Part shown: one piece after another, positions 3,476 to 24,931 of the stretch | Layout: each line of letters opens with the position of its first letter | Numbering within the stretch: the stretch's first letter is position 1 | Virus record (IMG/VR): IMGVR_UViG_3300027896_000014 | Coordinates: 32,001 to 96,000 of that record | DNA from: a virus | Reading direction: 5' to 3' (one strand) | DNA: 64,000 bases | Program-made: the position numbers and the translations under genes | The notes under the pieces: generated by a model | Databases searched by the model: none | Told to the model about the DNA's origin: nothing | Seen by the model: the letters and a program-made list of their open reading frames with translations, nothing else

Positions 3476-5026
3476 ATGCTTTTAGAGATTTCAAAGTTTG
3501 GGGGTGTTGCTCCGAAGGTGCTTGATCCAGTCGCCTTGGCAGTGGGCAAATCACAGGCAGCCCAAAATTGTAGGTTCGACGAGGGCGGGATAGTGCCCTA
3601 CCAAACCGACTCATTCATCGAAACGCCTCCTGGTCGAAGTCCATCAATTTTATCCCTTTATACCTACTGGATTGGAAATAGAATGTACTTTCTGACTTGG
3701 GCAAGTGATGTGGATGCCGTGGAAGCTCCACTACCAAACGATATGTATAATAGGGTTTTTTATACGGAAAGCGGAATACTAAAAGTTACCGATCAAAACA
3801 TTTTCATGCAGGGTGGAACGAATTACCCTATGGCCTGGGTAAACCCATCTCCTCCCGCTCCAGTCAACACACCGATAATTTCCGCAGTGATAGCGGGAAC
3901 CAACCCAGCCCTGATGCAGACAAGAGGTTATGTCTATACCTTAGTCAATGCCTACGGAGAGGAAGGTCCACCCTCTCCCGTTTCGAACCTTTTTAATATT
4001 TATGACGGGAATCCTGCCACTTTAAGCGGCATGGATACCTCGGTTGATAGTTCCTACAACATCCAAACAAAAAGGATTTATCGTATCAACCAGACGGCGG
4101 GCAGCGGTGCTCAATACCAATTTCTGACAGAGATCCCGCTTTCTCGGTCTACGTTTTTCGATGTCATCTTAAACTCTGCATTAGGGGAGGTGCTCCCAAG
4201 CGCTGAATGGGATGGGGCACCGTCTGGAATAAAAGGACTTATTGTGCTCCCCAATGGAATGTTGGCCGGTTTTGTCAATACTCCAGCCAATCTTGTTTGT
4301 CTTTCCGTCCCCTATTATCCTCACGCGTGGCCAGCCCGTTACCAGAAGGCGATAGACAGCCCAATTATTGGCCTGGGGTCTTTTGGAACGACAATCGCCG
4401 TTCTTACCGAGGGTCAACCCTACGTCATCGTCGGCAATGATCCAGAGAACTTAGTCATGGAAAAAATGGATACGGGCCTTTCCTGTTTATCAAAAAGAGG
4501 GGTGGCCCATCTTCCCGACGTTATTTACCCCTCCCCCGAAGGGCTTGTGCAGATAGGTCCGCAGGGATGGAATAATTTAACGGAAGACCTAATGAATAAG
4601 GATCAATGGCAATCCAGATATAACCCCGCATCCATAACAGCTTTTGACTATGACGGGAAATATGTAGCATTCTATCAAACCGCTACGAAGCAAGCTGGTT
4701 TTATCTTTGACCCCAAGACCAAAGACCTTGTTGACCTTGATTTTTACGCCACGGCAGGTTTTCGAGACCCCGTTGATGGGACATTGTATCTTGTCGTGGG
4801 TGGCAATATCGTCGCTTTTGCTCGAGGGGGTGGTTTTAATGTAGGAGGTTTTGTTGCAGGTGGAGAAGTTGAAGCAGTAGGCTATTTAAGTATGACAAAC
4901 CTCGGAGTGTTGTCCGCCGATCCCGATACAACTGGTTGGGGATCGGCCCAAGAAGGATGGTGCTGGTATAACGCTACTGATCATCATTACAAATACTGGG
5001 ACGGAACTAAACCCGTTTTGATGTGA
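3476..5026 (+). CDS. Tail nozzle/tubular protein, N-terminal part
   Basis: F.G.APK...L....Q.A.NC, R.YVYT.V..YGEEGPPSP, S.PY.PHAWP, C.SKRG and YPSPEGLV motifs; the usual C-terminal domain is missing. Confidence 0.75.
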   Translation: MLLEISKFGGVAPKVLDPVALAVGKSQAAQNCRFDEGGIVPYQTDSFIETPPGRSPSILSLYTYWIGNRMYFLTWASDVDAVEAPLPNDMYNRVFYTESGILKVTDQNIFMQGGTNYPMAWVNPSPPAPVNTPIISAVIAGTNPALMQTRGYVYTLVNAYGEEGPPSPVSNLFNIYDGNPATLSGMDTSVDSSYNIQTKRIYRINQTAGSGAQYQFLTEIPLSRSTFFDVILNSALGEVLPSAEWDGAPSGIKGLIVLPNGMLAGFVNTPANLVCLSVPYYPHAWPARYQKAIDSPIIGLGSFGTTIAVLTEGQPYVIVGNDPENLVMEKMDTGLSCLSKRGVAHLPDVIYPSPEGLVQIGPQGWNNLTEDLMNKDQWQSRYNPASITAFDYDGKYVAFYQTATKQAGFIFDPKTKDLVDLDFYATAGFRDPVDGTLYLVVGGNIVAFARGGGFNVGGFVAGGEVEAVGYLSMTNLGVLSADPDTTGWGSAQEGWCWYNATDHHYKYWDGTKPVLM

Positions 5027-8000
5027 GATTTATGAAATTAAAAAATTTAATCATCATTGGATTGATTCTTTTATTCCCCGTATTTTGCCACGCTGCGGCA
5101 ACTGATTATTGGGTCGATAACAATGGTGTTGTTCATTCTTATAGCCTGATTACCAAAGGTTTTCAATTGGGCACCTCAGCCACCGCTGGCTATGTCTTAA
5201 CCACTAATACTTCCGGTGTGGGAACCTGGCAGGCAGGAGGAGGAAGCATTGCTTGGGGTTCAATTACAGGAACTTTATCTAATCAGACTGATCTTCAAAA
5301 TGCTCTTAATGCCAAGGAATCGGCCTTGACTTTTCAATATTCTGTATATCGAAGTGGGAACACAATTAACCTTCTTAACGATTCGGCATCCCCACCTGCC
5401 TCTTACTACTATGGAACGGATTCAGGAGGAACGAGGGGATTCTTTATCCTGCCCTCCACCTCTGGCATGATCTATCCTGGTCCAGGCATAGCTGTGAGCA
5501 CAGGATCAATGTGGGGAACTTCCATTACTGACAACTCAGACCATTGGAACACTGCTTATGGTTGGGGTTATTGGGCACACACTACCCTTGCGGGATATGG
5601 GATCACCGATGCAGCTCCGCTTGCTCACAAGACGACAGAGGACGCCATAAATGGCTTAGTCTTTGTCAATGGAGCGGGAACCTACTCTGCTAAGGTCATA
5701 GGCACCGATGTTCAAGCATATAATTCCTCCTTAGCCGCCATTGCCGGAGGGACTTGGATTGGTGCAAATTCGATTACCACATTGGGGACAATTGGCACAG
5801 GGGTTTGGCAAGGGACGGCAATAGGAGATACCTACATCTCTTCGGCAAACAACTGGACTACAGCCTATACAGGGAGGGTAACCACATGGAATTCTCCTTT
5901 ACAATTCTCCTCGAATACCGCCTCGATTTTACAGGCCAGCACTACGGTATCTGGCTACCTTTTATCAACTGATTGGAATACCTTCAATACTAAGGAACCT
6001 GCCATATCTGCCGGAGCAACTTCCCAATATTGGAGAGGGGACAAATCTTGGCAGACTCTAAATCAAGCTGCTGTGGCTGGGCTAACTACTTCAGACAGTC
6101 CTACATTCACAGGATTAACTCTTTCTGGAGTAACTTCAACCGGAGCCTCAATTAAACTACAGGAAGGCCCAACTTCTGGAAACACATTCATAGCTCACAA
6201 GGCTCCCAATACCATTACAACCAGTGTGACATACACATGGCCTGAACTGGGAACGACGGGTTACTTTCTAAAACTTAATGATTCAGGTGGGACTCTGGTT
6301 TGGGCTGCTGCTTCTGGTGGTGGTATGACCGATCCCATGACTACTATTGGGGATATGATTTACCGGAATTCTTCCAATATCACTGATCGACGAGCTATTG
6401 GCACTACGGGTCAAATATTAACGGTTTCTGGCGGATTACCCGTTTGGGCTACCCCCGCTACTGGTTTAACCGTTGGAGGTTCTGATAAGGATGTCCAGGT
6501 TAATGCAAGCGGCACCTTTGGAGCAGATACAGGAGTTTTTACTTATGATTATACAAATCATATGCTAAGTGTCTTGGGTTCCTATGCAGGAAGCAAGTTA
6601 TCATTAACTCTACGGAATACATCCACTGGGACAACTTCATATAATCAAATGAGTTTAGGTAATGACATAGCATCAGATAGGTTTTATATAAGACTGCTCT
6701 CCTCATATTTCTCTGGTTTAAGTGAATATTCCTATATTATTAGTAAGGCCAGTGCTCCGATGATTCTTGGAGTGAATGGTTCTGAGGTGATGAGACTTAC
6801 AGGGACTTACGTAAATATAGCTGGTTTAACTGCATCTCAAGTGGTAATGACCGATGCCTCAAAAGATTTAGTATCACAAGCTCCAGCCGCTTTAACTAAA
6901 ACGGATGACACGAATATGACCTTAACGTTGGGGGGAACTCCTGCCACCGCATTACTTCAGGCCGTTTCATTAACTTTGGCTTGGACTGGAACTTTGGCAG
7001 ACGGGAAAATAGCCTCAGCAACCAATTGGAACGCCGCCTATAGCCATAAAACGACTGAGGACGCCCTAAGTGGCCTTGTATTCGTCAGTGGAGGTTCTTA
7101 TTCATCTAAAGTAATCGGGTCAGACGTGCAAGCGTTTAATGCTAACCTTGCCACGATTGCAGGATTGACGCCGGTTCAGAATAAAATTATGGTTGGGAGC
7201 GGCACCCCTGCTTGGTCAGTCTCTTCATTTACGGTTCCAGCTACACCAACGGCAAATAAAGCTCTTATTGGGGATGGCACAAACTTTATTTTAAGTACCC
7301 CTACCGTCCCATTTGCTTCATCTCCCGCAGCGGGAAAAGTAATGATCGGGGATGGAACGAATTGGGTTGCCTCCACCCCGACCTATCCCAACACTTCACC
7401 TGCATCGGGCAAGATTCTGATCGGAGACGGCACAAATTTTATTGCTTCTACTCCTACTTATCCAAACGCATCTTCACCAACGGTAAGGAAAATACTGGTT
7501 TCTGATGGGACGAATTGGGTAGCTTCGACTGAGACCTATGCGGTCCCTGGAACATCTGGGAATGTTATGACATCCAATGGCACAAATTGGATCTCATCAA
7601 CTCCCAGTAGTATGGTCTATCCTGGAGCAGGCATAGCGTTAAGCACGGGGTCTGCATGGGGAACTTCTATCACCGACAACTCAGCCAATTGGAACACAGC
7701 GTATACCAATCGGGTGAGTTCCTGGACTTCTCCCCTCCAATTCTCTTCTAACACTGCTTCAATCCTACAGGCCAGCACCTCGGCAAGTGGATATCTTTCA
7801 TCGACGGACTGGAATACATTTAACAATAAGGAATTTGCCTTAACCTTTCAGTATTCTCTCTACCGAGCAGGGAACACGATAAACCTTTATAACGATTCGG
7901 CATCCCCAGGCAACTCTCAGTATTATGGGACGGATTCGGGAGGAGCGAGAGGGTTTCATACTTTGCCCTCTGGTACTGTCCCAACGGGTACACAAGGAGA

Positions 8001-24151: not shown

Positions 24152-24175
24152 AACTTTTTAAAGGAGGGAATAGTT

Positions 24176-24931
24176 ATGAAAAAGAAATTGATTGCTGTTT
24201 TACTTGGAGCGCTTTTCCTTGGGGTCCTTGCTTCCCCATGCTTCTCTCAAAGCATCGGCGGATTTGGAATGGTGCCCGTCACGGGTAGATTGCTCAAAGT
24301 AACGGTTCTGACTTCTGGCACCAGCTTTGTCGCCCAGACCTGGACTACCCAACTCGTCGTTGAAGTTGTGGCTGCTGGCGGTGGTGGCGGTGGTGTTAGC
24401 GGGACTGCTTCAAACGCAGCATGCGGAGGCGGCGGCGGTTCCGGTGGGTATGCCCTTAAATATTTTACAGGAGTAAGCGGGGGCGCAACCTATACCTATG
24501 CAATTGGAGCTGGAGGTACGGCTGGGGCGAACACGGGAGGCACAGGGGGGACAGGAGGCAATACGACCTTCACGGGACCTGGTGCAGTTCTTATCACAGC
24601 CAATGGAGGGCTTGGCGGAGTTGGCATAGTCTACAATACTACGGCTGCGGTCGTCGCTGGTGGAGCAGGCGGAGCGGTAAGCACAAACGGAGACCTCAAT
24701 GCTGGTGGCACGGGCGGAGAATTCGCCAAGCGTGATTCTGGAACTTTGGCCGTCAGTGGCGGCGGAGCGGCAAGCATCTTCGGAGGCGGTGGAGTTGGGT
24801 TGACCGCACAGGGGAACGGAACTAATGCGACCGGATATGGAGCCGGTGCTGGTGGGGCTTTGTCCACTGCTGCTGCCTATACTGGTGGAGTCGGAGCTGG
24901 TGGCGTAATAATCGTCTGGGAATTTTCATAA
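24176..24931 (+). CDS. Glycine-rich fibre-tip-like protein with signal peptide
   Basis: VEVVAAGGGGGG...GGGGSGGYA...YTYAIGAGG...GAGGVIIVWEF (glycine-rich domain typical of phage fibres); N-terminus MKKKLIAVLLGALFLGVLASPCFS. Confidence 0.75.
   Translation: MKKKLIAVLLGALFLGVLASPCFSQSIGGFGMVPVTGRLLKVTVLTSGTSFVAQTWTTQLVVEVVAAGGGGGGVSGTASNAACGGGGGSGGYALKYFTGVSGGATYTYAIGAGGTAGANTGGTGGTGGNTTFTGPGAVLITANGGLGGVGIVYNTTAAVVAGGAGGAVSTNGDLNAGGTGGEFAKRDSGTLAVSGGGAASIFGGGGVGLTAQGNGTNATGYGAGAGGALSTAAAYTGGVGAGGVIIVWEFS

Follow-up and report, generated by a model that had tools for sequence, protein, structure and literature searches.

Sec-type leaders on tail-fibre-type proteins in the late operon of a short-tailed temperate phage

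We report that five late genes of a temperate phage, among them genes for proteins built from known virion-fibre domains, open with Sec-type leaders. The genes lie in a stretch of 64,000 nucleotides (bases 32001-96000 of the 145,243-base virus record IMGVR_UViG_3300027896_000014; hereafter, the window) and belong to the first of two phages in that record, which we call phage A and whose late operon forms the left module of the window (position 1 to approximately 28,400, + strand). Phage A has a P22-type portal and a major capsid protein of PHROG 334, its adaptor is of the SU10 type, and its nozzle is of the Bcep22/933W type; because of its portal, adaptor, and nozzle, we conclude that the finding concerns a short-tailed phage (a podovirus) of about 60 kb. 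Assembly of tailed phages is, in the textbook account, wholly cytoplasmic. The leaders suggest that host-recognition parts of phage A are made outside the cytoplasm, the compartment in which its particles are built. The proteins themselves belong to known fibre-domain families (Mtd_N and Gly_rich_2), and what is new is the leader ahead of these domains: we found no description of Sec leaders on tailed-phage fibres in the open-access literature, in which the report that comes nearest deals with Porphyromonas phages, where genes of other kinds encode signal peptides (PMC10367356).

An initial annotation of the window had proposed that five late genes of the left module begin with signal peptides. 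Using a rule-based score and inspection by eye (not SignalP), we reached the same view. The five genes encode, in order of position, proteins of 1721, 85, and 416 residues, a small open reading frame (ORF) with an in-frame TGA codon, and a protein of 251 residues (Table 1). Each opens with a basic n-region of net charge +2 to +3, followed by an uncharged hydrophobic stretch (the h-region), a helix breaker, and a small-x-small motif. The h-region is 14-15 residues long, as in cleaved signals, in all except the 85-residue protein, whose h-region of 19 residues appears to fit a membrane signal-anchor better than a cleaved signal. Residues -3 to -1 are CHA, AMA, SQS, AFA, and CFS, respectively, and Pro or Gly is found 4-9 residues upstream of the motif in four of the genes, the 85-residue protein having instead a Gly at position 18 of its 22-residue leader. 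Gln stands at +1 of several predicted cleavage sites (window 22625-22630 and 24245-24250, as well as the relatives L182 and L184), as in the Q-rule of Bacteroidetes; phages of Bacteroidota are usually without strong Shine-Dalgarno sites, and phage A has strong ones.

The leaders sit at the true starts of the genes, as the initial annotation had assumed. Strong ribosome-binding sites of the AAGGAG type are present 6-9 nucleotides upstream of the leader ATG in four of the five genes. The 1721-residue gene has no such site of its own and starts either at ATG 5032 or at GTG 5023, which overlaps the stop codon of the nozzle gene; because its start lies on or just past that stop codon, it is coupled translationally to the nozzle gene. 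In none of the five did we find a start downstream of the leader that was supported by a ribosome-binding site, which removes one of the grounds on which the initial annotation's proposal could have fallen. Applied to the 23 late proteins of phage A that lack a leader, the rule flagged none; its other flags in this phage were a 142-residue protein encoded after the portal gene and the lysis lipoprotein. Nor did it flag any late protein of the second phage (window 42-64 kb), to which the right-hand module of the window belongs and whose fibres the initial annotation had described as free of leaders. In a control stretch of 41 kb from Burkholderia phage JC1, comprising the flank upstream of the terminase gene and the late genes, the sole flag fell on a small membrane protein whose gene lies upstream of that for the terminase. 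Promoter- and terminator-like sites around the five genes showed no excess over shuffled sequences in consensus scans (a weak test, as the consensus may not be that of the host), and the genes therefore look embedded in the late operon. Their G+C content is like that of their neighbours.

What stands behind the leaders is clearest for the 416-residue protein. Its residues 30-66 match Pfam Mtd_N (PF18454) with 53.1 bits against a cut-off of 26.3, and it also matches tail-fibre families of PHROG, its variable C-terminal receptor-binding domains being common to prophage tail fibres. Cultured phages have Mtd_N in proteins whose annotation is minor tail, fibre, or structural protein; when we searched cultured phages with a leader-bearing Mtd_N protein, the matches were swamped by its C-terminal enzyme domain. 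An AlphaFold model of the 416-residue protein (mean predicted local distance difference test score of 81) shows the leader as a helix (residues 2-20) that stands apart from the confidently modelled N-domain behind it. In structure comparisons of this model, the N-domain resembled that of streptococcal phage HylP (Z 6.6-7.4, root-mean-square deviation [rmsd] 3.0-4.2 over 52-56 residues, 30-36% identity) and that of Bordetella phage Mtd (Z 8.2-8.8, but with an rmsd of about 12). The two beta-rich domains resembled phage receptor-binding domains and the tip of the Bdellovibrio fibre Bd2133, with middling Z scores of 5.7-7.9; the match of the C-terminal domain to the tip of the Bd2133 fibre had Z 7.8-7.9 and an rmsd of 3.2-3.7 over about 100 residues.

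The 251-residue protein matches Pfam Gly_rich_2 (PF21722) with 38.7 bits against a cut-off of 24.3, and PHROG 863 (E 3.4e-34) in what is the C-terminal part of longer fibres. For the 1721-residue protein we found no match in Pfam, PHROG, or, by sequence, the PDB; it is a mosaic of short modules that recur in over 100 giant fibre-like proteins, some of them with an S74 chaperone-protease domain at the end. The remaining two are called fibre-associated by position only. One is the 85-residue protein, which has a weak match to the Rz-like PHROG 739 (E 4e-4) and to which no family was assigned. The other is the ORF with the in-frame TGA, which lies six codons past the predicted cleavage site; the frame behind it stays open for 81 codons, near the beginning of which there is no start codon. 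At the position of this ORF three relatives of phage A (G001, G016, and G019) have a family of small leader-bearing proteins, homologous among themselves, with a Cys 4-5 residues after the cut and a second Cys 20-30 residues later; homology of the TGA-containing ORF to this family was not detected.

Table 1. Features of phage A and of a related leader cluster. Positions are those of the window unless a record name is given.
Feature	Position	Strand	Description
Head-to-tail adaptor	2636..3475	+	No leader; Pfam SU10_adaptor, E 1.1e-15; kept in relatives
Nozzle-type tail protein	3476..5026	+	No leader; PHROG 511, E 1.6e-112
1721-aa (amino acid) mosaic fibre-like protein	5023..10188	+	Leader 5032-5094; lectin-like C-terminal tip (read by eye)
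Leader of 1721-aa gene	5032-5094	+	21 aa, h-region 14, CHA/AA
85-aa partner	10201..10458	+	N-terminal signal-anchor, coiled coil, Lys/Glu-rich tail
Leader of 85-aa gene	from 10201	+	22 aa, h-region 19, AMA/GE
90-aa ORF	10455..10727	+	Matches C-terminal domain of relatives' nozzle or post-nozzle protein
416-aa fibre	22562..23812	+	Leader, Mtd_N domain, stalk, two beta-rich receptor-binding domains
Leader of 416-aa gene	22562-22627	+	22 aa, h-region 14, SQS/QT
Small TGA-containing ORF	23825..24151	+	Leader; in-frame TGA 23903-23905
Leader of TGA-containing ORF	23825-23884	+	20 aa, AFA/AK
251-aa protein	24176..24931	+	Leader and glycine-rich fibre-tip domain; Gly_rich_2, PHROG 863
Leader of 251-aa gene	24176-24247	+	24 aa, CFS/QS
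Lysis-cassette lipoprotein	26344..26787	+	147 aa, lipobox LMG/C; homologues in second phage (75% identical) and G001
142-aa leader-bearing protein	G000 23634-24062		8.4 kb before window start
Leader cluster of lambda-like prophage	L097 3653-8635; L098 9609-12860		Tube, tail L, NlpC/P60, gpJ

For the domains concerned, the distribution of leaders among homologues bears out the premise that fibres of tailed phages are normally leaderless. In a search of 1.84 billion representative proteins, of which the best 150 matches were read, about 143 matches have Mtd_N starting at residues 2-10, and in the remaining seven a Sec-type leader stands directly ahead of the domain. In the 416-residue protein of phage A, Mtd_N starts about 8 residues past the predicted cut, which is the same register as in the leaderless proteins. 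Its closest homologue (P0002, 81% identical) has the same mature start and a leader that differs almost throughout, as would be expected of signal peptides. Leaders were also seen in 4-6 of 120 homologues of its receptor-binding part, 6-9 of 120 glycine-rich homologues of the 251-residue protein, and 16-18 of 114 homologues of the 1721-residue protein. The leader-bearing homologues with readable context are all encoded in late modules of phages, namely podovirus L003, L005, two contigs from ENA, one myovirus-like contig, and a prophage of the lambda type. In the lambda-like prophage (L097/L098) five leader-bearing proteins of 110, 416, 461, 367, and 217 residues, with a leaderless ORF of 69 residues among them, follow gpJ, and they include a pair of Mtd_N and Gly_rich_2 proteins like that of phage A.

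A scan of viral contigs with a two-sequence alignment of the nozzle gave matches, one with a single nozzle protein having given none; genes in relatives of phage A were called with a simple longest-ORF caller. One relative, G001, is a complete genome of 63.9 kb with terminal repeats that is collinear with phage A (72.5% identity for the major capsid protein, 55% for the portal, 60% for the terminase, and about 43% for the nozzle). It has leaders on a 624-residue protein and, right behind it, on an 84-residue coiled-coil protein of the same design as the 85-residue protein of phage A, at a different locus; further leaders follow the gene for a 3690-residue ejection protein, on proteins of 168, 555, and probably 640 residues. 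None of these proteins is homologous to those of phage A. In G015 (also complete) and G019 the Mtd_N fibre has a leader, and so do the three proteins that come after it. In each of G001, G015, G016, and G019, three of four to four of four proteins in the cluster after the giant ejection protein have leaders, and no head, adaptor, nozzle, or ejection protein does. Across these four genomes, P0002, and the seven Mtd_N proteins, leaders are kept in kind, not in sequence; in that sense their conservation, which the initial annotation had named as a check, was upheld. Ten relatives identified by their terminases (42-88 kb) had no SU10-type adaptor and were uninformative on the tail.

What would such leaders do? 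Two Lys residues, 14-15 residues rich in Leu and Ile, and a small-x-small motif are what the signal recognition particle (SRP), SecA, and signal peptidase I recognise. Because N-termini of this kind are substrates of SRP/SecA and signal peptidase I, we consider it likely that the leader-bearing proteins of phage A are exported. On the evidence of their N-termini, all five would behave like Sec substrates, and we infer cleavage of the leaders by signal peptidase I. From its lysis lipoprotein, the phage has a diderm host with a periplasm.

We propose tentatively that the exported fibres dock on particles after the holin has opened the membrane. According to this model, the variable host-recognition genes (the fibre cassette that follows the nozzle gene and the cluster of three genes ahead of the lysis genes) would be expressed as Sec pre-proteins, translated from their annotated starts late in infection and passed through SecYEG. 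The fibres, with h-regions of 14-15 residues, would be cut by signal peptidase I, and the 85-residue coiled-coil partner, with its h-region of 19 residues, would probably remain in the inner membrane by its anchor. In the periplasm, fibre, tip, and helper proteins would fold and trimerise together, and DNA-filled, fibreless particles would be built in the cytoplasm. Particles and fibres would not meet until the inner membrane has been opened by the holin, and docking would take place at that point. The tailspike of P22-type phages is the last part to be added, and its addition works in vitro. In favour of docking, the domain behind the leader is the very domain that opens leaderless virion fibres, phages of other tail types have leader-bearing fibres in the position of a spike or side fibre, and the genes of phage A look embedded in the late operon or are coupled to it. 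That whole clusters have leaders, small helper-like proteins included, fits co-assembly in one compartment. Finally, neither phage A nor the complete genome G001 yielded a candidate for a fibre without a leader: a conserved 325-residue protein has an adaptor-like fold, and the block between portal and scaffold genes in G001 codes for glycosyl- and methyltransferases.

Several observations weigh against docking. No experimental precedent for any tailed phage was found in the open-access literature, and our leader calls come from a rule and inspection. Leaders are sporadic, being present on about 5-15% of homologous fibre domains, and a leader-bearing protein of at least 200 residues lies within 10 kb in only 1 of 80 nozzle-centred loci. 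In G016 the Mtd_N fibre at the same position is leaderless, and three leader-bearing proteins follow it. Fibre anchors are usually conserved, yet between phage A and G001 the leader-bearing proteins show no conservation of their mature N-termini, though the tails of the two phages are 43-72% identical. Other proteins could be the true receptor binders, namely a leaderless, lectin-like protein of 259 residues near the portal or the inserted nozzle domains of relatives. The initial annotation had rationalised export by the formation of disulfide bonds, and in phage A this rationale did not hold up: the five mature proteins have 9, 0, 4, 1, and 1 cysteines, or 0.4-1.0 per 100 residues, against 0.52 per 100 residues in the leaderless late proteins of phage A; cysteines are neither enriched nor paired and do not point to folding in the periplasm as a requirement. 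Lastly, the genes for the 1721- and 85-residue proteins look like an inserted, mobile cassette, because the 90-residue ORF behind them corresponds to the C-terminal domain of nozzle or post-nozzle proteins in relatives. In BLAST comparisons it matched residues 684-775 of the G001 nozzle as well as the C-termini of proteins of 401 and 570 residues, and in L110 and L113 its counterpart is the C-terminal domain of a variable, leaderless post-nozzle protein; in phage A the leader-bearing two-gene cassette separates it from the body of the nozzle. A complex prediction for the nozzle, the 90-residue domain, and three copies of fibre residues 25-150 gave a score of 0.02, which is evidence neither way.

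The main alternative, which we rate as only slightly less likely than docking, is that the proteins are exported but never enter the particle and act instead in the envelope of the infected cell or lysogen. They might be fibre-like adhesins or decoys, as in the alternative that the initial annotation had offered, or proteins that mask or destroy the phage's own receptor and in so doing exclude superinfecting phages or protect progeny from debris. Several of the facts above can be read in this way: phage A and G001 are temperate, the leaders are sporadic and the cassette is mobile, and in the lambda-like prophage the leader cluster follows an ordinary gpJ, which alone could serve the particle. 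The lambda genes lom and bor, whose products are exported, come from the same genome regions. Signal peptides encoded by Porphyromonas phages have likewise been read as belonging to envelope modifiers (PMC10367356), and Bdellovibrio has 21 phage-fibre-like mosaic adhesive trimer (MAT) proteins, all with a signal peptide (PMC10769870), the tip of one of which, Bd2133, is the structure that the C-terminal domain of our 416-residue model resembles. However, we saw no outer-membrane anchor or translocation domain in the phage proteins, and behind the leader stands the virion-type Mtd_N domain in place of the conserved 130-residue domain that follows the signal in MATs. The consensus scans revealed neither a promoter nor a terminator belonging to these genes, although the host's promoter type may differ. 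An envelope role would, moreover, leave the particle without a recognised receptor-binding protein in phage A, in the complete genome G001, and in those parts of G015 that were read.

It is improbable, in our estimation, that the working pool of fibres is not exported and joins particles in the cytoplasm as usual. The N-terminus could then be kept, or removed by another protease, as a tether or an aid to trimerisation, or Sec could be saturated late in infection, as might result from the synthesis of several abundant pre-proteins. The same fibre domain is leaderless in G016 and in most homologues, and gain or loss of a leader seems to be cheap. Against this stand the match of the leaders to what SRP/SecA and signal peptidase I are established to recognise, the position of the leader helix outside the folded domains of the AlphaFold model, and the presence of leaders on whole clusters, small helper-like proteins among them, which fits a shared compartment. 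As for the leaders being an artefact of miscalled starts or chance hydrophobic N-termini, the lack of a ribosome-binding site for the 1721-residue gene and the use of a rule in place of a trained predictor speak for it, but the strong sites in the other four genes, the unsupported downstream starts in all five, the recurrence of leaders with differing sequences in orthologues, and a rule that flagged no leaderless late protein, and in JC1 just the one small membrane protein, make it most implausible.

How do the leader-bearing proteins compare with known systems? The 416-residue protein is like the leaderless Mtd_N fibres (Mtd of BPP-1 and HylP) in its domain score above the Pfam cut-off and in its N-terminal fold, and its gene, like gene 9 for the P22 tailspike, is placed behind those of the ejection proteins where the late operon ends; it differs in that the leaders of the phage A fibres, 20-24 residues long and of the Sec type, have no counterpart ahead of the domain in those proteins. 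The MAT fibres of Bdellovibrio bacteriovorus are phage-fibre-like mosaics that open with a signal peptide (Caulton et al. 2024, PMC10769870). The likeness of the phage A proteins to them extends to the mosaic build, the signal peptide, and the tip resemblance to Bd2133, and some homologues of the 1721-residue protein share the S74 chaperone-protease domain. MATs, however, are chromosomal genes of a predator, whereas those of phage A are late genes of a phage, and MATs share a beta-rich domain, conserved and about 130 residues long, after the signal, where phage A has Mtd_N or unrelated sequence. No match to S74 (PF13884) was found among the proteins of the window, which does not exclude the family, as MATs outside the S74 subfamily exist; the 1721-residue protein showed no sequence match to solved chains, deposited MAT fragments included. 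Membership of the phage A proteins in the MAT family is not established.

The lambdoid morons lom and bor and the signal-peptide genes of Porphyromonas phages are also found among tail-fibre and lysis genes of temperate phages, and some of the Porphyromonas proteins have Gln at +1 (Matrishin et al. 2023, PMC10367356), as do the 416- and 251-residue proteins of phage A. Those proteins are not fibre-like, whereas the ones in phage A carry virion-fibre domains and had no detectable promoter of their own. The g3p protein of filamentous phages offers a different comparison: it binds the receptor, is synthesised with a Sec signal, and joins the particle at the membrane. It shares with the phage A fibres a Sec signal on a putative receptor binder, but inoviruses are extruded through the envelope, whereas tailed phages assemble in the cytoplasm and exit by lysis. 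The 85-residue protein is like an Rz-type i-spanin in having an N-terminal anchor and a periplasmic coiled coil. The gene of such a spanin adjoins, overlaps, or embeds that of the o-spanin lipoprotein, whereas in phage A the lipoprotein gene is 16 kb away; the 85-residue protein travels with a large leader-bearing protein in both phage A and G001.

The record as a whole consists of two related temperate phage genomes, one behind the other. It contains two large terminases that are 57% identical to each other, two homologous recombination modules (metallo-beta-lactamase, RecT, and HNH genes) that are 70-94% identical, two lysis lipoproteins, and two integrases. Each genome starts with the metallo-beta-lactamase/RecT/HNH module (window 28400-29250), and the record is either a tandem prophage pair or an assembly joined via the common module. 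Phage A and G001 both encode an integrase. The nozzle is 34% identical to nozzles of the Lessievirus (Bcep22-like) JC1 and of Ralstonia phages, which are annotated as head closure or internal virion proteins; its matches in Stx2-converting phages are more distant, at identities below 60%, and against uncultured relatives it is 43-60% identical. A search for the host by scanning genome contigs with terminase and RecT alignments gave no match.

Other genes of the two phages deserve mention. The 142-residue protein of phage A, encoded directly after the portal gene, has a textbook leader (SLA/AP) and no family match. At window 10724-10981 is a gene for an 85-residue protein that consists of three tandem copies of a unit of about 27 residues (PVIP..K.F.....LNN.R.YY); in relatives the N-terminal copy is kept after the nozzle. 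In the lysis region, a 60-residue ORF at approximately 25976-26158, below the 80-residue limit of our ORF list, has two membrane spans and resembles a holin, and the 147-residue lipoprotein has a hydrophobic C-terminal stretch and might be a one-piece spanin. The second phage has three small leader-bearing proteins (window 35481-36164 and 36265-36657 on the - strand and 40232-40504 on the + strand), two of them glycine-rich, in the early or lysogeny region beside the integrase gene; they look like ordinary exported conversion genes. The interval between portal and scaffold genes in G001 (32121-39452, or L094 12121-19452) is a sugar-modification block with genes for a GT9 heptosyltransferase-like protein, two GT2 proteins, two methyltransferases, a radical SAM/SPASM protein, a hexapeptide transferase, and a PIG-L deacetylase. 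There are GT9 enzymes that glycosylate exported adhesins, and a link of this block to the leader-bearing proteins is speculation. In L113 (5141-7126) and L114 (1036-3027) the major capsid gene is split into pieces of 80 and 301 residues by an ORF of about 240-270 residues, which could be an intron or homing-endonuclease insertion.

Export of whole fibre modules would leave two possibilities: that particles are finished at lysis in a second compartment, or that copies of the receptor binder are routinely sent to the envelope of the occupied cell. That this lineage, and probably many uncultured phages of all three tail types, have a receptor-binding apparatus that is Sec-exported, assembled in the periplasm, and fitted to finished particles between the triggering of the holin and the rupture of the outer membrane is a doubtful generalisation at present; if true, it would constitute a two-compartment assembly pathway for tailed phages. 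Either outcome would alter the prediction and expression of receptor-binding proteins for host-range work, views of lysis timing, and the annotation of fibre genes in metagenomes, and the leaders provide a simple marker for finding such phages.

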